From NCBI GenBank assembly GCA_024655885.1, contig JANLFN010000005.1:116007-180006 (forward strand): a stretch of DNA of 64,000 nt. Direction: 5' to 3'. The stretch comes from Eubacteriales bacterium (GTDB lineage: Bacteria > Bacillota > Clostridia > Acetivibrionales > JANLFN01). Both the position numbers and the translations under genes were made by a program. Shown piece after piece: positions 1 to 42,576 of this stretch (its first letter is position 1; every line of letters starts with the position of its first letter). The notes under the pieces were generated by a model. That model was not told the DNA's origin and did not search any database. It worked only from the letters and a program-made list of their open reading frames with translations.

Positions 1-48
1 CAATCCCTGTGGTATTGGCCGTTAAACGGATACACAGGGGATAGTGTG

Positions 49-115
49 AGACAAGGGGACGGTTCTTGTGTCTGAGGTCTTCAGCACCTCAGACACAAGA
101 ACCGTCCCCTTGTCT
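49..115. repeat. REP-like palindrome (perfect 30-bp stem, 7-nt loop) built from two inverted copies of a GACAAGGGGACGGTTCTT-containing unit, immediately 3' of prfC
   Basis: Arms 49-78 and 86-115 are exact reverse complements. The same unit recurs at 9759-9821. A variant, GTGACAGGGGACGGTTC..., forms the ends of the elements at 24968, 28094, 31250 and 31517. Confidence 0.85.
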
Positions 116-120
116 TTGGC

Positions 121-1731
121 TTAAGCCAGGGCTTTAGCCGCAATGTCGGTGAGCACAAGCCCTTTATTGCGCTCTTCAGCCCAGCGGATGGACCATTCAT
201 TCTCAAAGAGAAGCACATACCTGCTTTCCTTGTCCTCTGTCACCGCCGTAGAACTTGTAAGATTCAGCTTTCTGGGGTCGACTTCCGCACTGCTTATCCA
301 GCGCGCGTGCTTGAAGGGAAGGTGGTGTATTTTGATATCCACACCGTATTCATGTTTGAGCCTGTGCTCCAGTACTTCAAACTGAAGCGCTCCCACAGCG
401 CCTATGATTAACTCCTCCATTCCTATGTCGATCTGCTTGAATACCTGTATGGCTCCCTCTTCCGAAAGCTGGTTAATCCCCTTCAAAAACTGCTTGCGCT
501 TCATGGAATCCGCCGCGTTCACCCTTGCGAAGTGCTCTGCAGGGAAAACGGGGATTCCTTCGAATTTCAGCTGGGGATTGCCCTCGCAAAGGGTATCCCC
601 GATGTTGAATATGCCCGGGTCAAATATCCCTATGATATCTCCGGGATAAGCTTCCTCAACAATGGTGCGCTCCTGGGCCATAAACTGCTGAGGCTGGGAA
701 AGCCTGACCTCTTTTCCCGCCTGGACGTGGTACACCGACATACCGCGGGTGAACTTTCCCGAACACACCCGAATAAAAGCGATTCTATCCCTGTGGGTGG
801 GATTCATGTTTGCCTGGATTTTAAAGATGAAGCCGGAGAATTTCTCACTTTCCGGGTCTACCTCGCCTGCTGTGGACAGCCTTATTCCAGGGGCCGGCGC
901 CAGCCTTAAAAAATCTTCCAGGAAGGGCTGAACCCCAAAATTTGTCATGGCACTGCCGAAGAAAATGGGTGTGAGTTCGCCTTTCATCACTTTTTTCCTG
1001 TCAAACTCATCGCCGGCCATATCCAGGAGCTCTATTTCCTCGCACAGGCGCTTATGGTAATGGTCCCCCAGCAGCTCGGAAAAGATTGGGTCGCCAACCT
1101 TTCCAATAGTTGACGCAACAGCGGTTTGCCCGTGTTCCCCGCCGTTGAAGAGCTCTATCTGTGCAAGGTTTCTGTTGTAAACGCCTTTAAAGTCGCCTTC
1201 GGTACCGATGGGCCAGTTCATGGGGTAGGAGCGTATGCCCAGTACCCGCTCTATTTCTTCCATGAGTTCAAAGGGGTCCTTGCTGGCCCTATCCATTTTA
1301 TTGACGAAGGTGAAAATGGGTATGCCGCGCATTTTACATACATGGAACAGCTTTATTGTCTGCGCTTCCACGCCTTTTGCCCCGTCAATCAACATGACTG
1401 CGCTGTCCGCCGCCACCAGGGTCCTGTAGGTATCCTCGCTGAAATCCTGATGGCCGGGAGTGTCAAGAATGTTAATACAGTAATCATTGTAGTTGAACTG
1501 CAAAACACTGGAGGTAACGGATATCCCCCTTTGCTTTTCGATTTCCATCCAGTCGGATACGGCGTATTTATTTGCCTTTCTTGCCTTAACCGACCCTGCA
1601 AGCCGGATAGCCCCTCCGTAGAGAAGAAGCTTTTCTGTCAATGTGGTTTTACCGGCATCCGGATGGGAGATGATGGCAAAGGTCCTCCTTCTTTTCACTT
1701 CTCTGCTTATTATGTCCTTCAAATCCTGCAT
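121..1731 (-). CDS. prfC: peptide chain release factor 3 (translational GTPase)
   Basis: 536-aa ORF with G-domain motifs AIISHPDAGKTT, DTPGH and NKMD, and full-length RF3-like organisation. Confidence 0.93.
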   Translation of the reverse strand: MQDLKDIISREVKRRRTFAIISHPDAGKTTLTEKLLLYGGAIRLAGSVKARKANKYAVSDWMEIEKQRGISVTSSVLQFNYNDYCINILDTPGHQDFSEDTYRTLVAADSAVMLIDGAKGVEAQTIKLFHVCKMRGIPIFTFVNKMDRASKDPFELMEEIERVLGIRSYPMNWPIGTEGDFKGVYNRNLAQIELFNGGEHGQTAVASTIGKVGDPIFSELLGDHYHKRLCEEIELLDMAGDEFDRKKVMKGELTPIFFGSAMTNFGVQPFLEDFLRLAPAPGIRLSTAGEVDPESEKFSGFIFKIQANMNPTHRDRIAFIRVCSGKFTRGMSVYHVQAGKEVRLSQPQQFMAQERTIVEEAYPGDIIGIFDPGIFNIGDTLCEGNPQLKFEGIPVFPAEHFARVNAADSMKRKQFLKGINQLSEEGAIQVFKQIDIGMEELIIGAVGALQFEVLEHRLKHEYGVDIKIHHLPFKHARWISSAEVDPRKLNLTSSTAVTEDKESRYVLLFENEWSIRWAEERNKGLVLTDIAAKALA

Positions 1732-7800: not shown

Positions 7801-7969
7801 ACCGGAGCCGTCGGACGAGAGGGAAGTAATGGAGCATGAAAGATTCCCCATGAGGTACCTGGATCCCGAGACAAGGAAGTCGTCTTTCGATGAGGTGGCT
7901 GTCGGGTTTTATAAGCTCAATGCGGTTGAAGAGGCCATGAGGTGCTTAAGGTGCGACAGGAGGGCATGA
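4871..7969 (+). CDS. hydB: NuoF/HydB-type flavoprotein subunit fused to a GltD/NfnB-type Fe-S + FAD/NAD(P)H oxidoreductase domain (1032 aa)
   Basis: N-terminal Trx-like 2Fe-2S region (CSGAGC...CIGDCNLGP). NuoF core with GRGGGGFPTGVKW and ESCGKCVPCRVG. This is followed by CQNACPAGV...CGRVCTHPCESKC, GIIGAGPSGLTCGYYLARLG and VIGGGNTAVDAART. Confidence 0.88.
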   Translation: MDGKLAVRRAEDLENIKNQYLSENSRYQYRVLVCSGAGCISSNCHAVKDALVKALQDSNLCDRVSVSETGCIGDCNLGPAMVVLPEGVLYTKLDPKDVGPIVDSHFLKGRIRMENTYYDIPKEKHIPFLKDIDYFKNQVKIALRNCGRIDYASLEEYIANDGYKSIARVLQDMTPAEVVKEIKKSGLRGRGGGGFPTGVKWEEGMKSEGDVKYIVCNADEGDPGAYMDRSILEGDPHSIIEGMMIGAYAIGASKGYVYIRAEYPLAVERLDTAIKKAREAGLLGENILESGFNFELEIRIGEGAFVCGEETALIASIEGKRGEPEQKPPYPSQKGLYGKPTVINNVETFANIPPIILKGSEWFTQYGTQGSKGTKVFALAGSVNNAGIVEVPMGITVGDIVFNIGGGIKKNKQFKALQSGGPSGGCVTKDHLNTPIDYDSLVKLGSIMGSGGLIALDEDTCMVDMAKYFMEFVQEESCGKCVPCRVGTKRMLEILERITKGEGQNGDIELLQEIGQMIKETSVCGLGQTAPNPVLSTIKSFREEYEEHIKYKHCRAGVCENMFISPCQNACPAGVNVPGYIALIAAGRLRDAYNLIRKENPFPAVCGRVCTHPCESKCRRAQLDDPIAISDLKRYVTDYVFKNEEPYMDLVFPKKGISVGIIGAGPSGLTCGYYLARLGYDVEVYEAHQVAGGVLAFGIPEFRLPKDILQHEIKLIERVGVKIHLNTEVGTDITFYQLRNKHAAIYIATGTQFPHKINIPGEELKEVYYGMDFLRYVSLGKKPKVTGTVAVIGGGNTAVDAARTALRLGAKKVYILYRRLIEDMPADARDVREAIEEGIEILPLVTPLRFLGKDRVTGVECIRMEFGEFDSTGRRKPKPIHGTEFTIKVDAVIPAISLYSDLPFINKNEVEVTQWGTFVADNDTLMTKMKGVFAGGDVIRGSDVVISAIADGKKAAKSIDKYLGGNGILNTGEDIEIPEPSDEREVMEHERFPMRYLDPETRKSSFDEVAVGFYKLNAVEEAMRCLRCDRRA

Positions 7970-9753
7970 CGATGGTAAACTTGACAATCAACAACAAAAA
8001 GATATGTGCGGCAGAGGAAATGACCATTCTTGAGGCGGCAAAGCAGAATAACATATTAATCCCCCATTTTTGCTCCATGGAGGGGATCCACCAGATAGGC
8101 TCATGCAGGATATGCGTCGTCGAGGTGGAGGGTGAAAAGACACTGCAGGCCTCCTGCAAGATCCGTGTAAAAGAGGGAATGGTTGTTTATACGAATACCG
8201 AAAAAGTGAAAAAAGCCCGGAAGCTGTTATATGAGCTGATGCTTTCCGACCACCCCAAGGACTGTTTAAATTGTACCAGAAACCAGAACTGTGAGTTTCA
8301 ACGGCTTGGTGAAATCATACAGGTCAGTGAATCCAGGTTTGAAGGCGAAAAATCGAAACCGGACAGGGACGATTCTTCTCCCTCCATCGTCAGGGATACC
8401 GCCAAATGCATCCTGTGCAGGCGCTGTGTAACCGTATGCAACGATGTGCAGGAAATTGGGGTGCTGAATGTTCAAAAACGCGGGTTTCATTCATTTGTGG
8501 GTCCAGCGGCGGGGCTTCCGCTCAACAGCGTCAACTGCACCTACTGCGGGCAGTGCATTAATGTTTGTCCTGTGGGAGCGCTGCAGGAAAAGGATTCCAC
8601 CCAGATGGTGTGGAATGCCCTGTATGACAGAAACAAGAGGGTCATAGTGCAAACCGCTCCTTCGGTGAGGGTGTCCCTTGGAGAAGAATTCGGATACGAA
8701 CCGGGTACGGTTGTGACGGGAAAAATGGTTACGGCCCTCCGTGATATAGGTTTTAACGATGTTTTTGATACAAGCTTTGGAGCGGATTTGACAGTTCTGG
8801 AAGAAAGCCATGAGCTGTTAAAGAGGATAAAAAATTCCTTTCTGGCAAAACAAGCGGCGCTGCCTATGATAACAAGCTGCAGTCCGGGCTGGATCAAGTA
8901 TTTCGAGCATGTTTTTCCCGAAAGGCTGGAACACCTGTCTACCTGCAAATCTCCCCACATGATGCTTGGGGCTTTGATAAAAACGTACTATGCGGATAAA
9001 ATAAAAGTAAATCCAAAGGATATTTTTGTAGTTTCGGTCATGCCGTGTACGGCAAAGAAATTTGAAATCACGAGACCTGAGCTGAAAAATAACGGCTTTC
9101 CCAATGTAGATGCGGTTTTGACAACCCGGGAGCTGGCGAGGATGATAAAAGAAGCGGGAATCGATTTCAGGAATCTGGAGGAGGGCGAATTTGATACTCC
9201 TCTGGGAATATCGGCAGGAGCGGGCAACCTGTTCGGAGCGGCCGGAGGCGTAGCGGAAGCGGTTTTAAGAACCGTTTACAGGACGGTCACGGGAAGGGAG
9301 CTTCAGCCGGGAATGGTTCACATACGTTCCATAAAAGGACAGGAGCACATCAAAGCCCTTGAGGTGAAAATAGAGAACACGGTGGAGGAATACAGGTTCA
9401 TAGACGGTGAAACACTTAAAGTGGCTGCAGCAAGCGGCATGAAGGGGATGAAAGCCTTTATGGAACAGCTGGAGGACGGTACCTCCCCGTACCACTTCAT
9501 TGAAGTTATGGGATGCCCCGGCGGTTGTATAAACGGCGGCGGGCAGCCGAGACCCAGCAACGAGTATGTGAGGAAAAAGCGTATGGAAGCGGTTCACAGC
9601 ATCGACAGGGGCAAAGCCTTAAGAGGCTCTCATGAAAATCCGGCCATAGCAAAGCTGTATGAGGAATTCCTGGCCGAACCGCTGGGAAAGAAGTCCGGTG
9701 AGCTGCTGCATACCAAATACACAAAAAGAGGAATCTATAACGAACTTATCTAA
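7966..9753 (+). CDS. hydA: [FeFe]-hydrogenase catalytic subunit, M3-type (2Fe-2S, His-ligated 4Fe-4S, 2x4Fe-4S, H-domain)
   Basis: Motifs HPKDCLNCTRNQNC, MPCTAKKFE and EVMGCPGGCINGGGQP are present. The first H-cluster motif reads TSCSPGW. The ATG at 7966 overlaps the hydB stop (ATGA). Confidence 0.9.
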   Translation: MTMVNLTINNKKICAAEEMTILEAAKQNNILIPHFCSMEGIHQIGSCRICVVEVEGEKTLQASCKIRVKEGMVVYTNTEKVKKARKLLYELMLSDHPKDCLNCTRNQNCEFQRLGEIIQVSESRFEGEKSKPDRDDSSPSIVRDTAKCILCRRCVTVCNDVQEIGVLNVQKRGFHSFVGPAAGLPLNSVNCTYCGQCINVCPVGALQEKDSTQMVWNALYDRNKRVIVQTAPSVRVSLGEEFGYEPGTVVTGKMVTALRDIGFNDVFDTSFGADLTVLEESHELLKRIKNSFLAKQAALPMITSCSPGWIKYFEHVFPERLEHLSTCKSPHMMLGALIKTYYADKIKVNPKDIFVVSVMPCTAKKFEITRPELKNNGFPNVDAVLTTRELARMIKEAGIDFRNLEEGEFDTPLGISAGAGNLFGAAGGVAEAVLRTVYRTVTGRELQPGMVHIRSIKGQEHIKALEVKIENTVEEYRFIDGETLKVAAASGMKGMKAFMEQLEDGTSPYHFIEVMGCPGGCINGGGQPRPSNEYVRKKRMEAVHSIDRGKALRGSHENPAIAKLYEEFLAEPLGKKSGELLHTKYTKRGIYNELI

Positions 9754-9758
9754 AGACA

Positions 9759-9826
9759 AGAGACAAGGGGACGGTTCTTCTGTCTGGTTTCACCAGACAG
9801 AAGAACCGTCCCCTTGTCTCTTTTTG
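9759..9826 (+). terminator. REP-like palindrome acting as the hydA terminator (30-bp perfect stem, then T-run)
   Basis: Arms 9759-9788 and 9792-9821 are exact reverse complements and are followed by TTTTT. The unit GACAAGGGGACGGTTCTT is shared with 49-115. Confidence 0.85.
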
Positions 9827-23990: not shown

Positions 23991-24971
23991 ATGAACAGTG
24001 TGTTCAAAGACATGCGTGCAAAGGGTAAGCCCTTGGGTAACTTTGAAGATAAGATCGGCAGACTCGGCGAAATTCTTAAACGTGATGATGTCATCAGAAG
24101 CTCTGAGAATTCTCGAAAACAAGGTGAAATACTCGGGAATCCTTTGGATAATGTGCCTTTTTTTAAAAAGTTGATGCTTTCGCCGATTTTGATGAGTATT
24201 ATGAAAGAATTGAATAAAAGCTATGACGGTATAGATACTCCAGTAAAAAAGAACCGGATAAATGAAGAAGAACTCCAAAAAATTGAAAAAAAGGCCAAGG
24301 AATTGGGGGCACTTTCAATCGGATATGCCAGAGTTGATAAGGAAGATATTTTTGAAGGTTACGGGATCGTTTATCCCAATGCTATTGTTTTTACAATTGA
24401 AATGGATAAGGAAAACATCAATAAAGCACCTAGTATTGATACAGCGAAAATGATTATGAAGACCTATGACCAAACCGGTATTGTTGCAAACAAGCTTACG
24501 GAATTCATACGTGAGATGGGCTTTGGCGCGCATGCCGGACCGGGTTTGGGAGGGCTGACAATTTATCCTGTGCTGGCTGAAAAGGCTAACTTGGGTATAA
24601 TCGGAAGACACGGACTGCTTATATCACCAGAAGTTGGTCCAAGATTACGGCTTGCTGTTGTATATACAAATATTGATAACCTTCCGTTAAAAAATGAAAA
24701 TACGCACAAATGGGTTCTGCAATTCTGTAAAAGCTGCGGCAAATGTATCAGGAAGTGTCCTGACGGTGCAATCTATAACACACCAGTTAAAACCAAGGGT
24801 GAGCATGTTTCATATATGGACTATAAAAAATGTGCTGTACATTTTGCCGAATGGTTTGGCTGCACGGTTTGTGTCAAAGAATGTGTGTTTAGCCAGAATG
24901 ACTATCAGGATATCAAAGAAAATTTCTTTCAAAATAAGGATAAGTCCGAAGCGAATGAGTATAAAATGTGA
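23991..24971 (+). CDS. Fe-S oxidoreductase of the reductive-dehalogenase/QueG superfamily (326 aa, no signal peptide)
   Basis: GIIGRHGLLISPEVGPRLRLAVVYTN core, followed by CKSCGKCIRKCP and a second Cys cluster (CAVHFAEWFGCTVCVKEC). Confidence 0.6.
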   Translation: MNSVFKDMRAKGKPLGNFEDKIGRLGEILKRDDVIRSSENSRKQGEILGNPLDNVPFFKKLMLSPILMSIMKELNKSYDGIDTPVKKNRINEEELQKIEKKAKELGALSIGYARVDKEDIFEGYGIVYPNAIVFTIEMDKENINKAPSIDTAKMIMKTYDQTGIVANKLTEFIREMGFGAHAGPGLGGLTIYPVLAEKANLGIIGRHGLLISPEVGPRLRLAVVYTNIDNLPLKNENTHKWVLQFCKSCGKCIRKCPDGAIYNTPVKTKGEHVSYMDYKKCAVHFAEWFGCTVCVKECVFSQNDYQDIKENFFQNKDKSEANEYKM

Positions 24972-25225
24972 CAGGGGACGGTTCTTTGTCACGCAATGCT
25001 CATAAGTGGCATAATCCCCAAAACCTAAACAGGAGGGGGATGCTATGCCAAGACGTATTCGAAGTTTGAGCAGCAGAAAAATATACCATGTGATGGCACG
25101 CGGCAACGAAAGAAAGAACCTATTCATGTAAGAAGACAGAGCAAGGTATATAGAGGCTTTATCCAGGGCCAGAGGGCACTCTTCCGGCGGAATTAAAACA
25201 ATACGCCAAGGGTGCCCTGTTTTTT
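24968..25225 (+). mobile_element. RAYT/IS200-like element remnant, copy A (left terminal unit, truncated Y1-transposase N-terminus, hairpin/T-run; right terminal unit missing)
   Basis: The terminal unit GTGACAGGGGACGGTTCTTTGTCAC spans 24968-24992. An AGGAGG RBS precedes an ORF (25045-25131) reading MPRRIRSLSSRKIYHVMARGNERKNLFM*. The copy is near-identical to copy C. Confidence 0.75.
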
Positions 25226-25242
25226 AAAGTAGGAAACTTGAG

Positions 25243-25686
25243 TTAATTACTTTCTTGTTCAGCAAAATAATTAATAATATTTGAGCCGACTTTTTCTATT
25301 AATTCGAACAGTTGCTCCTTTTGATCCTGGGAAAAGTTCTCTAACATTATTTTATTCCAGGAATCAAGGACATTTTCAAGATACTCCCTAACAGCGGCAG
25401 CTTTTTTTGTAGTATATAATTTTTGGGCCCGTTTATCATCTTCGCTGGTCATTCTAAAAACATAGCCTTCCTTTTCTAACTTTTTAATAGCTCTTGCTGT
25501 TGTGGCCTTGTCTAGTTTTACCAACTTAGAGAGTTGTTCCTGGATAATTCCATTATTATCGTACAACGTCATTAGAAATTGATATTGACCACTTCCTAAA
25601 TTATATTTGTTTAATAATGGGTTAAAAAATATTTGGCTGTACCGATAAATTAATGAAATATGCTTACCGAATCTGTCCGTATCCAT
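25243..25686 (-). CDS. MarR-family transcriptional regulator
   Basis: 147 aa with a winged-helix region (QEQLSKLVKLDKATTARAIKKLEKEGYV). ATG 25686 is preceded by GGAGGA. Confidence 0.85.
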   Translation of the reverse strand: MDTDRFGKHISLIYRYSQIFFNPLLNKYNLGSGQYQFLMTLYDNNGIIQEQLSKLVKLDKATTARAIKKLEKEGYVFRMTSEDDKRAQKLYTTKKAAAVREYLENVLDSWNKIMLENFSQDQKEQLFELIEKVGSNIINYFAEQESN

Positions 25687-25990
25687 TTTTTCCTCCATGA
25701 ATAGGTTATAGTCATGTCTAAAAAATTGAAATATAGTTACATGTGCAATCATTTAATTGTATATAAAATTATTGTCTAAGTAAAGTATCATAAAAGCCTA
25801 TATACTTTGTTTTTATAGATTATCATCATAGGAATTTCAAATATCTATTAAACTCAACGGATTATCATGTATTGTATAATGATAGAATTATACAAAATAA
25901 GTTGCAAATGCAACATTTTGTGTTATAATATAGTTGCATACGCAATTATATTATAACACAATAAAATTAATTCTATAGGAGGTATTTTTT

Positions 25991-27037
25991 ATGATTATTG
26001 ACATCAATATGCACCACCTTCCCGAAGATTTTTTTACCAACGAGAAGATTCTGAATGGTTTTTTGAACACGGCGCCCCGCTCATTTGGAGAGATCGTGAC
26101 TTTGAGTAAAGTACCTGATACCGGCGCCCACCAGCTCACTCTCGAAAAACCAAAAGGCTATCCGAACCTCAACTACGTTGAGGGCGATTATTCACTCGAG
26201 GCTAAGCTTCGGGCGATGGATGACGCCGGCGTCGACAAGGCTATACTTCGCGTGCCGGTTTGGCAGGAGTGGCTACAGCTTGAAACATGCAAGATCGTAA
26301 ATGACAACGCGGCAGACATGTGCAAGCGATCAGGCAGCCGCCTTTATTCGGTCGCTTGTGTTCCGCCCTGGGGAGGTAAGGAGAACATTTATGAGCTCGA
26401 ACGCTGTCTAAAGGAACTCGGAATGGTCGGTGTCCAACTGGCCTGCCATTACGGACAGCTTTACCTCGACGACGAGGCCTTTAAGCCCTACTTGAAGGTT
26501 CTTAACGAGATGAACGTGCCGGTCGTTGTTCATCATACCCCACTGCCGGTCTACTGGCAGTCCATCTATGAATATACGAATCTGCGCCGTGAGTTCGGCC
26601 GCATCGTCGACCAGGGTACTGCTGTGGGACGCGAGTTGTTCAGCGGCATGTTCGACGAATTCCCGAACCTCAAATTCATCCACACCATGTTCGGCGGCAA
26701 CTGGTTTGCAAACTACCACCTGCTTGCGCCCCACAAGAGCAACAAGAAGGAAGCTATATCGCGTTTGGATACCGCCGATGCCGACAGGATTACGCGCTAT
26801 CTGCAGAATAATATCTACTTCGACATGACTCACCCGGCCTCTTGGGGCAAAGCGGAAGTCGAGTGTGCGATCAAGGTCTGCGGCGCCGACCACATGTTGT
26901 TTGGCACTTCGTTCCCGGTGGTCTATGGTTGGATGTCACAAGGTGTCGAGTTTGTCAAAGCTCTGGACATCACAGAGGAGGAACGCGAACTCATCATGAA
27001 TGGGAATGCTCTTCGTCTCTTCAAGCTCGACGTATAG
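25991..27037 (+). CDS. amidohydrolase-2 (ACMSD/LigW-type metal-dependent hydrolase/decarboxylase) family protein
   Basis: 348 aa with N-terminal IDINMHH, a later HH pair (VVVHHTP) and a C-terminal FGTSFP...NALRLF pattern. GC is markedly higher than in the flanks. Confidence 0.75.
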   Translation: MIIDINMHHLPEDFFTNEKILNGFLNTAPRSFGEIVTLSKVPDTGAHQLTLEKPKGYPNLNYVEGDYSLEAKLRAMDDAGVDKAILRVPVWQEWLQLETCKIVNDNAADMCKRSGSRLYSVACVPPWGGKENIYELERCLKELGMVGVQLACHYGQLYLDDEAFKPYLKVLNEMNVPVVVHHTPLPVYWQSIYEYTNLRREFGRIVDQGTAVGRELFSGMFDEFPNLKFIHTMFGGNWFANYHLLAPHKSNKKEAISRLDTADADRITRYLQNNIYFDMTHPASWGKAEVECAIKVCGADHMLFGTSFPVVYGWMSQGVEFVKALDITEEERELIMNGNALRLFKLDV

Positions 27038-27130
27038 GAGGAAGGCAATGATTGAAGTTCTTTATGCGGTGTGTGTGACTGGTTATGTTGCAATATTCTG
27101 CTGTTAAAAACGTCCCAAACTGCAGAAGGT

Positions 27131-27405
27131 ATGGAACGTTTCAAAACGGATGCAGATAGATTCAGAGGTTACTTTAAGGAAAATTTATTCTTTGATATGT
27201 TGCACGCTGGGCCGTGGGGTAAAGAACAAGTAGAGTGTGCGATTAAAGCATGTGATGCTGACCATGTTTTTTTGGCTCTTCTTATCCTGTTAGACATGAG
27301 TGGCTGATCAAAGGCATTGATTATGTTAAGAGCCTGAATGTCAGCGGAGAAGAAAAAGCTTTGGTTCTCGGTGGAAATGCACAAAGATTATTTAATATTC
27401 GATAA
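27131..27405 (+). pseudogene. 3' remnant of a paralogous amidohydrolase-2 gene (5'-truncated and frameshifted)
   Basis: ERFKTDADRFRGYFKENLFFDMLHAGPWGKEQVECAIKACDADH aligns to residues ~255-300 of the intact gene. Adding 1 nt in the T7 run at 27267-27273 restores VFFGSSYPVRHEWLIKGIDYVKSLNVSGEEKALVLGGNAQRLFNIR*. Confidence 0.8.
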
Positions 27406-27445
27406 GCTGAGTATTAAAGAACTATTTAGTTTTAAATCTGTATGT

Positions 27446-27488
27446 TTTACCCAGGATAACCTAATTTTATAAAGTTATCCTGGGTAAA
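27446..27488. terminator. 15-bp perfect hairpin (TTTACCCAGGATAAC / GTTATCCTGGGTAAA)
   Basis: Read directly. It lies between the amidohydrolase remnant and the MarR remnant. Confidence 0.6.
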
Positions 27489-27564
27489 TCTAGAAAGGAA
27501 AAAATTGAAAATCCCATGTGTATTTATGAATAAAGAATGTTTTTCTACTTGCTTACCTGAATAT

Positions 27565-27747
27565 TCATTGGAGAATGAAAATTAACTTAGAAAGCTGTTC
27601 CTGGATAATTTCATTATTATCGTATAAAGTCATGAGAAACTGGTATTGGCCACTTCCTAAACCATATTTGCTTAATAATGGATTAAGAAATAAATGGCTG
27701 TACCGATAAATTAATGAAATATGTTTGCCGAATCTGTCCGTGTCCAT
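27565..27747 (-). pseudogene. 5' remnant of a paralogous MarR gene, with a duplicated copy of its promoter region
   Basis: MDTDRFGKHISLIYRYSHLFLNPLLSKYGLGSGQYQFLMTLYDNNEIIQEQLSKL is near-identical to the N-terminus of 25243-25686 and then diverges to a stop. 27748-27880 resembles 25687-25830. Confidence 0.8.
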
Positions 27748-27919
27748 TATTACCCCCATTAATAAAGTCATTTCTAACAAGTGAAATATAGTTACATATG
27801 CAACCATTTAATTGTACATAAAATTATAGGCTAAGTAAAGTATTATAAAAGCCAATATCTATGTTTTGATAAATTATTATCTCGTCAAGAGTAAATAAAC
27901 ACCCTTTTCAAGGGCGCTC

Positions 27920-27948
27920 TTGACATGTCATTTGCTTTTCTCTATAGT
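27920..27948 (+). promoter_or_regulatory. orphan sigma-A-type promoter TTGACA-17-TATAGT
   Basis: Read directly. It is followed by a 9-bp hairpin (27957-27987), and no ORF precedes the hairpin/T-run of element copy B. Confidence 0.4.
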
Positions 27949-28033
27949 ATAATCAAGGCTTGTAAACCAACATCTGGCTTACAAGCCCCAAAAGATCATC
28001 ATAGAAAGCAATTTACAGAAAAAGTTTCACATA

Positions 28034-28118
28034 ATCCAGGGCGCTCTTCCGGCGGAATTAAAACAACACGCCAAGGGTGCCCTGTTTTTTAGTGCGACAA
28101 AGAACCGTCCCCTGTCGC
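28034..28118 (+). mobile_element. RAYT/IS200-like element remnant, copy B (hairpin/T-run plus right terminal unit only)
   Basis: ATCCAGGGCGCTCTTCCGGCGGAATTAAAACAACACGCCAAGGGTGCCCTGTTTTTT is followed by GCGACAAAGAACCGTCCCCTGTCGC (28094-28118). The latter is the inverted form of the copy A left unit. Confidence 0.75.
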
Positions 28119-28145
28119 ATGCAACAAATGAAAATACATGCCATC

Positions 28146-31249: not shown

Positions 31250-31541
31250 TGTGACAGGGGACGGTTCCTCGACACACATGCTCATAAATGGCATAGTCTC
31301 CCAAACCTAAACAGGAGGGGGATGCTATGCCAAGACGTATTCGTAGCTTGAGCAGCAGCAAAATATACCGTGTGATGGTACGCGGCAACGAAAGAAAGAA
31401 CCTATTCATGGATGAAGAAGGCAGAGCAAGGTATGTAGAGGCTTTATCCAGGGCTGCAGGGCACTCTTCCGGCGGAATTAAAGCAAACACGCCAAGAGTG
31501 CCCTGTTTTGTGAAGTGTGACAAAGAACCGTTCCCTGTCAC
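31250..31541 (+). mobile_element. RAYT/IS200-like element, copy C: complete 292-bp non-autonomous (MITE-like) derivative with both terminal units
   Basis: The left unit is GTGACAGGGGACGGTTCCTCGACAC (31250-31274). The right unit is GTGACAAAGAACCGTTCCCTGTCAC (31517-31541), in inverted orientation. The internal ORF begins MPRRIRSLSSSKIYRVMVRGNERKNLFMDEEGRARYVEAL, a Y1-transposase N-terminus, and then runs into the hairpin. Confidence 0.8.
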
Positions 31542-33604: not shown

Positions 33605-34159
33605 ATGGAAGAAAAAAAAGCTGAAAGCAATGTATATAAGGAAATTTTAAGCTGGGTCAAGGCAATTGCACTGGCGCTGGCTGTTGCCCTGGTAATCCGG
33701 TTTTTCCTGTTTGAGCCCATGACCATCCCTTCAGGGTCAATGCTGGACACCCTGCAAATTGGTGATAGGATCTATGTGAATAAATTTATTTATAAGCTTA
33801 CCCCTATAAAAAGAGGAGATATTGTCGTATTCTGGTACCCTGACAACCCCTCCGTAAGATATGTAAAGAGGGCTGTCGGCCTTGGCGGGGATGTGGTGGA
33901 AATAAAAAAAGGAAGGCTTTACGTTAACGGAGTGGTACAAAACGAGCCCTATCTCAAAGAACCCATGCGCCCCGAAGACTTTGGACCTTACAAGGTGCCT
34001 GCGGACCATTACTTCATGATGGGGGACAATAGAAACGATTCTCTGGACAGCAGGTACTGGAACAACAAATACGTGGATAAAAGTGCGGTTATAGGCAAAC
34101 CTGTGTTCATATACTTTCCTTTGAACAGGATCGGAGTGATTAAAACGGCTGCGCCTTAA
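33605..34159 (+). CDS. lepB: signal peptidase I
   Basis: Motifs SGSM (catalytic Ser), KRAVGLGGD (catalytic Lys region) and GDNRNDSLDSRYW are present. Confidence 0.92.
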   Translation: MEEKKAESNVYKEILSWVKAIALALAVALVIRFFLFEPMTIPSGSMLDTLQIGDRIYVNKFIYKLTPIKRGDIVVFWYPDNPSVRYVKRAVGLGGDVVEIKKGRLYVNGVVQNEPYLKEPMRPEDFGPYKVPADHYFMMGDNRNDSLDSRYWNNKYVDKSAVIGKPVFIYFPLNRIGVIKTAAP

Positions 34160-34175
34160 CAGGCACAGCCGTTTT
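34142..34175. terminator. bidirectional hairpin between the convergent lepB and acyl-CoA ligase genes
   Basis: AAAACGGCTGCGCC ... GGCACAGCCGTTTT (one mismatch), flanked by A and T runs. Confidence 0.65.
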
Positions 34176-34177
34176 AA

Positions 34178-35896
34178 TCACTCTTGCTTTTCAAGGTATC
34201 TTTTAATTTTTTTGGTTGTAGTTTTAGCAAACTCATTTTCACGCAGCCGGAAATTTTTTATGTACTTATAAGTGACCAGCTGCTTATTCACATCTTTTAC
34301 TTCACTTTTTATCAATTCGTGGACAAACTCATCGGTGATTTTCTGATCCTTAAAATCTTCCTGTATTTTTTCCATATCCGGAATAATGACGGCAGATACA
34401 GACACTTCACCGGGTTCTCCGCCATGTTCACCGTATACAAGGGATTCCTTTATGTGAGGGCTTTTATTGAGCAGTGCTTCAATTTCTTCAGGAAAAATAT
34501 TTTTTCCGTTCTTTGTGACGATGACATTTTTTTTACGGCCTGTAATATGGATAAATCCGTCACTATCATAAAATCCCAGGTCGCCCGTGCACAACCAACC
34601 GTCTTTGAAAACGGCGGCTGTGGCTCTTTCATCTTCGTAGTAACCCAGCATGACGCTTGGTCCTTTGACTATAATTTCTCCCACACCGTCATCTCCGGGA
34701 TTGTCGATTTTTACCTCTAGATTGGGAAGAGGCAGGCCTGCGGCGTCGTCTTTAAAATCCACATCCCGGTTCAGCGCAACAATGGGGGAACACTCGGTAA
34801 GGCCATATCCCTGTACAAAGTGAAGACCCAGATCTCTGAATCCCTTTGCCACCACAGGATCAATTCCTGCAGCTCCGCTGATAAGTATTTTTATTTTGCC
34901 GCCGAAATTTTCGTGGACTTGCGCAAACAACTTTTTTGTCACATCTATGCCAAGTTTTTTCAGGAAGTTGCTTATTTTAATCCCTATTTTCAGCTTTTTC
35001 AGCAGGGCAGGGTCCTTGGCCGCCTGGTCCCATATCCGGCGGTAAAAGGCTTCGAAAATCAAGGGGACTCCAAGCATTACAGTGGCTTTGGATTCCTGGA
35101 GGTTTTTGGGGATGTGCCTCAGGCCTTCGCAAAAGGCTATGGCAGCTCCTCGATATAGGGGGCAGAGAAAACCGCAGCTACACTCGTAGGTATGATGTAT
35201 GGGAAGCACGGATAAAAAAATGTCGTGCTCGGAAATATAAAGCATGGAGCACATGGCCATCAGGTTTGAACAGATGTTTTTGTGGGACAGCATTACCGCT
35301 TTTGAGGTATCCATTGTACCTGAAGTAAATAGGAGCATGTTTAAATCCTCATTATTGATTTCAGCCGCTATAAAACTTTGATCCCCCTTTGAAACCAATT
35401 CATAGCCCTTTTCTATCAAATCCTTGAAGGAAATGGCCCTGTCATGGCTTTCTTCCCCATCCATATTGATAAAGAAATCTACGGTGCCTATTCTGCCGGC
35501 GATTCTCATGATGTTCTCCCGGTTGTTCCCGGTGAATATTATGGCATTGGCCCTGGACCTTAATATCAGGCTTTCCACTTCATTTTCGGGGAGTTCCTTG
35601 TCGAGAGGCACAACGGTTCCTACTCCGTTTACAACAGCTAGGTAGGAAACGGCCCATTCATACCTGTTTTCACCGATCAATGCAATTCTTTTGCCTTTCA
35701 GTCCAAGATTTATGAGGGCGGTGCCAAGGGCATCCACGTCCTTTTTATATTGTTTATAGGACACCGGCGCATAGTTTTCATTTCCCTTTTTCTTTATCAG
35801 AAAGGCTGTCCTGCTGCCATACAAATCAACGCTGGAATTCAGCATTTCCTTTAGGCTGCTGATAGGTCTGACCTCATAGAGGGAGATATTCTTCAT
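34178..35896 (-). CDS. long-chain-fatty-acid--CoA ligase (AMP-forming, ANL superfamily)
   Basis: Motifs FTSGTMDTSKAVMLSH (AMP-binding) and GYGLTE...TGD are present. ATG 35896 follows GAGGTG; the 32-codon upstream extension in the track is hydrophobic nonsense. Confidence 0.88.
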   Translation of the reverse strand: MKNISLYEVRPISSLKEMLNSSVDLYGSRTAFLIKKKGNENYAPVSYKQYKKDVDALGTALINLGLKGKRIALIGENRYEWAVSYLAVVNGVGTVVPLDKELPENEVESLILRSRANAIIFTGNNRENIMRIAGRIGTVDFFINMDGEESHDRAISFKDLIEKGYELVSKGDQSFIAAEINNEDLNMLLFTSGTMDTSKAVMLSHKNICSNLMAMCSMLYISEHDIFLSVLPIHHTYECSCGFLCPLYRGAAIAFCEGLRHIPKNLQESKATVMLGVPLIFEAFYRRIWDQAAKDPALLKKLKIGIKISNFLKKLGIDVTKKLFAQVHENFGGKIKILISGAAGIDPVVAKGFRDLGLHFVQGYGLTECSPIVALNRDVDFKDDAAGLPLPNLEVKIDNPGDDGVGEIIVKGPSVMLGYYEDERATAAVFKDGWLCTGDLGFYDSDGFIHITGRKKNVIVTKNGKNIFPEEIEALLNKSPHIKESLVYGEHGGEPGEVSVSAVIIPDMEKIQEDFKDQKITDEFVHELIKSEVKDVNKQLVTYKYIKNFRLRENEFAKTTTKKIKRYLEKQE

Positions 35897-42500: not shown

Positions 42501-42576
42501 TGGCAGGGGAGACAGGACTCGAACCTGCAGCCGACGGTTTTGGAGACCGCTACTCTACCAATTGCGCTACTCCCCT
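42501..42576 (-). tRNA. tRNA-Trp: tRNA-Trp (anticodon CCA), 76 nt with encoded CCA end
   Basis: The manual cloverleaf has acceptor AGGGGAG/CTCCCCT, anticodon loop CTCCAAA, T-arm GCAGG-TTCGAGT-CCTGT and discriminator G. A hairpin terminator lies at 42468-42495. Confidence 0.92.

Follow-up and report, generated by a model that had tools for sequence, protein, structure and literature searches.

The palindromes, hairpin units and element relics of the window (the whole stretch of DNA analysed, 64,000 nucleotides) listed in Table 1 are probably non-autonomous derivatives of a single kind of TIRtron-type element (RAYT group 1, TnpA-REP subclass 2.1). The repeats share the core GGGGACGGTTC, which, allowing at most one mismatch, occurs eight times in the window (sites 55, 99, 9767, 9803, 24974, 28102, 31257 and 31525) compared to 0.8 expected, a count reached by none of 100 shuffled sequences. 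All eight copies are confined to the first 31.6 kb, with none between 31600 and 64000, and the 10 kb to the left of the window, which bring the genome stretch covered to 74 kb, contain neither a hairpin unit nor a Y1 gene.

The core is found in two free-standing palindromes behind prfC and hydA (doublets 1 and 2, Table 1), which the initial annotation had described as inverted copies of one unit. Both are real and perfect: the arms of doublet 1 (49-78 and 86-115) are 30 nt long each, those of doublet 2 (9758-9788 and 9792-9822) 31 nt each, and the arms are 100% complementary around spacers of 7 and 3 nt, respectively. Folded as single-stranded DNA they reach -38.2 kcal/mol (z -12.3) and -39.2 kcal/mol (z -13.1), values matched by 0 of 200 shuffles, while single units alone fold weakly (-3.6 to -6.2 kcal/mol, z mostly about -1.3). 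The sequence confirms that both doublets are inverted copies of AGACAAGGGGACGGTTCTT(G/C)TGTCT, in which the 25-nt unit reads AGACA-A-GGGGACGGTTC-TT(G/C)-TGTCT; the unit common to these two unlinked sites extends over 26-27 nt at 96% identity. Doublet 1 fills the gap between the convergent stop codons of an ECF-S (ECF-transporter) gene (42-44) and prfC (stop 121-123; gene 121-1731, minus strand, Pfam GTP_EFTU and RF3_C), lying 4 nt from the former and 5 nt from the latter, and doublet 2 begins 4 nt past the stop codon of the group A6 [FeFe] hydrogenase gene hydA (7942-9753). The terminator consensus is matched by doublet 2 on either strand, and a T-rich tract follows it, which is absent at doublet 1; long hairpins lodged right after stop codons, as these are, probably have a second role in termination or in stabilising mRNA 3' ends. 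The DNA comes from an uncultured Clostridiales MAG; its placement in the genus Clostridium is not supported, as the nearest relatives of its HydA share only 73% identity.

An assembly artefact was ruled out, since the window sequence, palindromes included, is also present in the independent JGI metagenome assembly 3300038743, and a CRISPR array was ruled out as there is no spacer-repeat array. In the JGI assembly, position 1 of contig Ga0417229_000121 corresponds to window position 9788, the last base of the left arm of doublet 2, and the neighbouring contig Ga0417229_000138 starts at window position 9734, so that the two overlap by 55 nt. Searching the whole window against Rfam at gathering thresholds matched the units to no known RNA family, and the sole match was a tRNA gene (42504-42576, minus strand). 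Two unrelated palindromes were also seen, one with 23-nt arms (96% complementary) between convergent genes at 34134-34183, and one with 20-nt arms at 25918-25961, upstream of an amidohydrolase gene beside a MarR gene, which is operator-like.

Table 1. Hairpin units, doublets and element relics in the window.
Feature	Position	Strand	Remarks
Possible partial unit CACAGGGGA	33-41	+	In the last codons of the ECF-S gene, 8 nt 5' of doublet 1; weak, chance possible
Doublet 1 (67 bp)	49-115		Units 49-73 (+) and 91-115 (-), 17-nt centre; perfect 30-bp stem
Partial 5' unit copy AGACAAG ("stutter")	9754-9760	+	Directly abuts the full unit of doublet 2
Doublet 2 (65 bp)	9758-9822		Units 9761-9785 (+) and 9795-9819 (-); perfect 31-bp stem
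Left-end hairpin unit GTGACA-GGGGACGGTTCTT-TGTCAC	24968-24992	+	3' stem gives a -35-like TTGTCA
Decayed Y1 transposase N-terminal remnant	25045-25170	+	In-frame stop at codon 29, one-codon deletion
D3 terminator-like hairpin and T-run, copy 1	25173-25226	+	Internal
D3 hairpin, copy 2	28038-28091	+	96% identical to copy 1
Right-end hairpin unit TGCGACA-AAGAACCGTCCCC-TGTCGCA	28093-28119	-	With the unit at 24968, encloses 3.15 kb
MITE-like element, 291 bp	31251-31541	+	Sole complete one, both inverted units present
Left unit GTGACAGGGGACGGTTCCTCGACAC of the 291-bp element	31251-31275	+	3' stem degenerate
Promoter-like site of the 291-bp element	31269-31297	+	-35 in the left unit's 3' stem
43-codon N-terminal remnant MPRRIRSLSSSKIYRVMVRGNERKNLFMDEEGRARYVEALSRA	31327-31455	+	In the 291-bp element; preceded by a ribosome-binding site
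D3 hairpin, copy 3	31458-31511	+	In the 291-bp element
Right unit of the 291-bp element	31517-31541	inverted	Right terminus of the element

GGGGACGGTTC also ends one complete 291-bp element and two half-elements (24968-25226 and 28038-28119). Elements of about 0.3 kb encoding the N-terminus of a Y1 transposase had initially been annotated at 24968, 28094 and 31250/31517; the shared core is present in all of them, but only the copy at 31251-31541 is complete with both units, and the peptide is encoded there and at 24968 (in the latter with an in-frame stop) but not at 28038-28119, which consists of the D3 hairpin and the right unit alone. The half-element at 24968-25226 lacks the right unit and matches the left 260 bp of the 291-bp element at about 90% identity. 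A promoter-like sequence in the window, TTGTCA-18-TGgCATAAT, has its -35 in the left unit. While the loop core is shared by all copies, the stems differ between the doublets (AGACA(A)...TGTCT) and the element ends (GTGACA...TGTCAC), which may therefore depend on different enzymes. The internal D3 hairpin folds at -14.1 kcal/mol (z -4.3) ahead of a T-run, and a search of all related loci fetched revealed it nowhere beyond the three copies in the window.

The 3.15 kb between 24968 and 28119 hold a MarR gene, an Amidohydro_2 gene and a truncated MarR paralog (the MarR repeats at 25523-25803 and 27584-27858 are 87-89% identical), and a 54-nt D3 copy lies just inside each end of the segment, whose left and right units are correctly oriented to each other. 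This arrangement could have come from the capture of cargo, from recombination of two elements with each other or from two deletions that happened independently. At its left border, the TGA stop codon (24969-24971) of the upstream Fer4-domain gene (23991-24971) sits inside the stem of the left unit, and the insertion at 24968 seems to have supplied or replaced the 3' end of this gene.

The encoded peptide ends at residue 43, ahead of the HUH motif, and the C-terminal helix-turn-helix (HTH) is likewise deleted. Comparing the 86-aa open reading frame to Pfam and NCBIfam with hmmscan gave no match even at an E-value of 10, so that the HMM check proposed in the initial annotation came out negative, and a word-indexed protein search with the 43-aa peptide returned only the window's own open reading frame. 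The homology is visible only through phmmer matches to full-length proteins: among 1.8 billion representative proteins the 43-aa peptide found 59 matches (E 2e-9 to 1e-3), all but a few of which align at the N-terminus of the matched protein. Of these 59 cluster representatives, ten are 255-273 aa long and 42 are shorter than 130 aa. The identity of the window remnants to full-length homologues is 53-56% over the shared N-terminal residues (about 43). The tested full-length homologues (about 265 aa) match Y1_Tnp (PF01797) with E-values of 1e-13 to 1e-19, and their best NCBIfam model is NF047646, "REP-associated tyrosine transposase" (67-97 bits, cut-off 80), whereas the IS200 model NF033573 falls short of its cut-off (55), with 17-37 bits on all full-length homologues. 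Their HUH motif reads NHxHL and their class-2 Tyr motif, of the Y---NP type, RYIHNNP; in five of the eight homologues tested a C-terminal HTH_23 domain is matched at E 2e-5 to 4e-3, at or just below the Pfam cut-off, and the C-terminal motif L..R.IA.L.G...N.V is conserved in all homologues tested (264-273 aa). The sole sequence match of a full-length relative in the PDB is E. coli TnpArep, 4ER8 (E 0.0047). The proposed Y1 origin of the remnants is thus supported by way of the full-length homologues, as Y1 (HUH) transposases of the RAYT/TnpA-REP class, and it is also correct that every copy in the window is deleted, as all of them lack the HUH and Tyr motifs; an intact Y1 gene was found neither in the window nor in the 10 kb to its left.

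Shortened versions of such proteins are also present in public data. The open reading frames include in-frame internal deletions (P0026 joins the first 34 to the last 13 residues, and P0036 is similar), and other short phmmer matches may be cut at contig ends. A metagenome scan for close relatives of the peptide retrieved, among the matches listed, three distant full-length relatives and no copy from the same organism. The C-terminus of P0021, QGTVP, could be encoded by the unit's CAGGGGACGGTTCC, judging from the protein only. Other sightings were a human-gut phage record (MT835484.1, 1215-1916) with a distant Y1 relative (28.5% identity over 91% of the query) and a 2,689-aa protein, P0003, that matches residues 7-23 of the peptide twice.

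The claim that inverted units flank the transposase gene is borne out around full-length relatives. Inverted units enclose a full-length gene in an Oscillospiraceae MAG (L050, 837 nt apart), in a metagenome contig (L122, 873 nt apart, stem GAGTCA/TGACTC), in L115 (721 nt apart) and in the isolate Acetoanaerobium noterae DSL2 (L126, about 880 nt apart), whose units, AATCATTAGGGACGGTTC, carry GGGACGGTTC, with a core one G short. The right unit of L126 overlaps the 3' end of the gene (...KEPSLMI), as confirmed at the DNA level, and the C-terminal EPSP of P0027 and P0054 would, from its sequence, be encoded by GAACCGTCCCC. The ATG follows the left repeat at a distance of about 35-70 nt (L050, L122, L123, L124 and the window), which is about 50 nt in L050, L122 and the window. 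In A. noterae (NZ_CP154629.1), nine units lie within 40 kb of the intact gene, and three 50-kb samples from elsewhere in this sequence (150 kb, L128-L130) contained none. NZ_CP154629.1, taken from PLSDB, is a 2.63-Mb circular sequence with four listed features that is labelled as a plasmid and is probably the chromosome.

One genome per species was scanned with the key GACA(A)GGGGACGGTTC, yielding at least 120 stretches, of which at least about 100 came from Clostridia (Lachnospiraceae, Oscillospiraceae, Syntrophomonadaceae and others), with a few from Coriobacteriia and one from an Atribacterota MAG. As the 11-nt loop was the search key, its recurrence is selected for, while the stem around it covaries. 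By our own estimate about 1,400 chance matches to a 15/16-mer are expected in 596 Gb, so that single matches in other, non-Firmicutes phyla are probably noise, and it is the structure of the units, not their number, that carries the argument. Among the stretches listed, the core is enclosed by a stem of 4 bp or more in 98 of 134 units, and stems of at least 7 bp were found in 51 units versus 14 expected when 3' flanks were swapped between units. Stem pairs 5-7, which were not selected by the key, are paired in 66-91% of 95 distinct units, with 32-37 double changes each, giving a covariation score of 0.66 compared to 0.23 in shuffled data (0 of 500 reached 0.66) and at most 0.17 with the partner slid. 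Neighbouring units that fall outside the search pattern have still other stems (CACA/TGTG, ATCA/TGAT, GTCA/TGAC and GACAA/TTGTC). Covariation of the stem with compensatory changes indicates selection for intrastrand pairing.

The arrangement of the units follows the ends of the gene. Among close inverted pairs (at most 60 nt apart) 33 are convergent and one is divergent, convergent being the orientation of the left and right ends of the gene; in this REPIN-like sense the doublets are unit pairs oriented as the gene's two ends. Such convergent doublets occur in at least 29 further loci besides 49-115 and 9758-9822, and the spacings of paired units fall into three groups of 25-60, 100-530 and 720-875 nt. 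Just 5' of many full units we also observed a tandem "stutter" made of the unit's 5' stem and the first 2-8 nucleotides of the loop, with end points after loop nucleotides 2-3 and 6-8; a partial copy within 50 nt is found upstream of 31 of 222 units and downstream of 11. Stutters were seen at 9754-9760 and possibly at 33-41 in the window and in L004, L013, L039, L045, L052, L072, L095, L105 and L110, with L039 containing arrays of half-units at a 21-nt period. The stutter may mark a point of cutting and rejoining in the loop. Beyond Bacillota, well-formed units and doublets were noted in L006 (Coriobacteriales), L120 (Denitrobacterium) and L018 (Atribacterota). Over 29 nt, the units of L018 share 93% identity with the termini of the 291-bp element, which suggests, together with the presence of units outside Bacillota, horizontal transfer or mis-binned contigs.

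These properties fit TIRtrons/TIRYTs (RAYT group 1, TnpA-REP subclass 2.1) as the closest class. TIRtrons were described with GGGGWSAS-type repeats that are partly self-complementary and occur in dimers or clusters, with no example named from Firmicutes (Di Nocera et al., 2013, PMC3733652); TIRYTs were later equated with TnpA-REP subclass 2.1, to which RAYT group 1 was also assigned, and the same authors detected no REP-like sequences beside the genes of this subclass (Quentin et al., 2018, PMC6006769). Clostridia are among the reported carriers of RAYT group 1 (Bertels et al., 2017, PMC5581495). As in TIRtrons, the proteins related to the remnants are RAYT-like Y1 homologues that exceed classical RAYTs in length and have a Y---NP motif and, at the C-terminus, an HTH_23/28-like domain. 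Terminal inverted repeats surround the gene, here the remnant between 31251-31275 and 31517-31541 and likewise the intact genes in relatives, and the repeat families seem moderately abundant, partly self-complementary and often in dimers or clusters. The repeats also carry a G-run motif: GGGGWSAS is exact in the distant relatives L123 (GGGGACAG), L124 and L127 (GGGGTCAG), and the window units, with GGGGACGG, agree at seven of the eight positions, having G instead of A at position 7. The flanks of these relatives read GATTTTCGGGGACAGTCCCCAAAAATC in L123, CATCGGGGTCAGTCTTGGC in L124 and GGGGTCAGGCC in the Sporomusa plasmid L127. The present case departs from the described TIRtrons in having a hairpin whose stem covaries around an 11-nt loop (the key of our scan) that is unchanged across many Clostridia, some Coriobacteriia and Atribacterota MAGs, and a window that holds deletion derivatives only rather than the gene.

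Classical REP/RAYT systems of Proteobacteria were reportedly also treated by Nunvar in 2010 and Ton-Hoang in 2012. The classical REP/RAYT systems (REPtrons) and the REPINs of Proteobacteria (Bertels and Rainey, 2011, PMC3116915) share with our case a Y1 gene flanked by inverted hairpin repeats and dispersed inverted doublets that form long hairpins, mostly extragenic at gene 3' ends, and that are read as non-autonomous elements served in trans. They differ in that the units here have no GTAG/CGTC tag, the conserved block being the loop GGGGACGGTTC, and in that the protein probably belongs to subclass 2.1 rather than 2.2/2.5. Moreover, a classical RAYT is a domesticated single-copy gene with tens to hundreds of dispersed repeat copies per genome, whereas here two to three decayed gene copies lie within 7 kb, in an IS/MITE-like manner, and the eight units in 74 kb, all within 31.5 kb, suggest a moderate and locally clustered copy number. 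The REP/RAYT architecture proposed in the initial annotation therefore stands as regards the Y1 gene with inverted units and the REPIN-like doublets, but it is not of the classical GTAG type and fits TIRtron/TIRYT. With IS200/IS605 elements such as IS608 the present elements have in common the HUH/Y1 catalytic domain, subterminal recognition hairpins and internal-deletion derivatives. However, the homologues score 17-37 bits with the IS200 model (cut-off 55) as opposed to 67-97 with the REP-transposase model, measure about 265 aa with an HTH compared to about 150 aa, and are accompanied by no tnpB gene here, and the ends are inverted copies of one unit instead of two like-oriented hairpins on one strand. 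We conclude that the elements probably belong to a known class (TIRtron/RAYT group 1) and are not a new system.

The probable course of events can be outlined as follows. The parent would be a TIRtron of about 0.9 kb encoding a Y1/HUH transposase of the RAYT class (about 265 aa) with a C-terminal HTH, flanked by inverted short hairpins with a covarying 6-7-bp stem and the near-invariant loop GGGGACGGTTC. Its left unit would lie about 50-70 nt before the ATG, with the 3' half of the stem serving as a -35 box, and its right unit would abut or overlap the stop codon. Internal deletions would then generate a size series, in which the 291-bp element keeps both ends and 43 codons and the 67- and 65-bp palindromes keep the two end units only, as REPIN-like doublets. 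The deletion open reading frames and the spacing groups indicate that the window holds two steps of this series, the full-length member being missing. An intact enzyme, encoded at another place, would bind the hairpin and cut next to or within it and, by analogy to IS200/IS605 and E. coli TnpA-REP, would move any pair of a left and a right end via a single-stranded intermediate. Because the end units are inverted, the loops that one strand presents are G-rich at one of its ends and C-rich at the opposite end, unlike in IS608, so that the enzyme may read double-stranded DNA through its HTH.

A different view of the same remains is that the transposase lineage is extinct here and that units and doublets are immobile fossils, kept by drift or by use as terminators. 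All gene copies in the 74 kb are truncated before the HUH motif, one of them with an in-frame stop, the 3' stem is degenerate in the left unit of the complete element, and the two element copies are only about 90% identical, all of which this view would explain. We nonetheless consider it unlikely: the doublets are perfect over 30-31 nt and 96% identical to each other, pointing to recent origin or maintenance, and the stretch seen is about 15% of a 485-kb contig and less of the genome.

It is a good deal less probable that the palindromes never moved and are simply intrinsic terminators or mRNA 3' stabilisers of the host, resembling the element termini only through shared sequence constraints, even though both lie 4-5 nt past stop codons, one of them between convergent genes, and doublet 2 fits the terminator consensus on both strands. 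Such an origin leaves unexplained why a 26-27-nt unit recurs at two unlinked sites with 96% identity, why the 11-nt loop is found with covarying stems in at least about 100 Clostridia loci and flanking Y1 genes, and why close inverted pairs are biased 33:1 in orientation, and doublet 1 has no T-tract. Finally, the repeats could be double-stranded TIRs bound by the enzyme's C-terminal HTH in a cut-and-paste-like or site-specific reaction to which the single-stranded hairpin is irrelevant, as the inversion of the units at the two ends, the 11-nt conserved block (a typical size for an HTH site), the plain TIRs with GGGGTCAG in L124 and L127 and the HTH_23-like domains of the enzymes would allow, but the compensatory stem changes, which speak for selection on intrastrand pairing, and the HUH/Y1 catalytic domain, a single-strand nuclease, make this very improbable.

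On the derivation from a TIRtron-type element that we favour, one may go further and regard the invariant-loop hairpin as the DNA on which the HTH-bearing Y1 enzymes of subclass 2.1 act, a substrate common to Clostridia and interchangeable among them that was also handed on to Coriobacteriia and Atribacterota, a tentative and rather unlikely extension at present. If it were true, the stutter copies would mark where the enzyme cuts and rejoins in the loop, and a left/right pair could capture host genes, as in the 3.15-kb MarR-amidohydrolase segment at 24968-28119. Text searches of the literature (the motif on both strands, TIRYT, RAYT/REPIN) returned no description of this Clostridial repeat, the motif searches on both strands yielding only coincidental primers, and no biochemical work on subclass 2.1 enzymes was found in the literature searched.

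No RAYT-like class is larger than subclass 2.1 (group 1), which also ranks second in size among all Y1 subclasses, and published surveys found no hairpin substrates beside its genes. For the annotation of Clostridia, the doublets and relics add spurious short open reading frames and altered gene ends to MAGs, and the perfect hairpin doublets fragment short-read assemblies, as in the JGI contig that is broken exactly at one arm. For the family, the units described here provide a candidate substrate-enzyme pair: the 25-nt hairpin, invariant in its loop, comes with a natural series of deletions, and an intact flanked gene is present in a cultured host, A. noterae DSL2.
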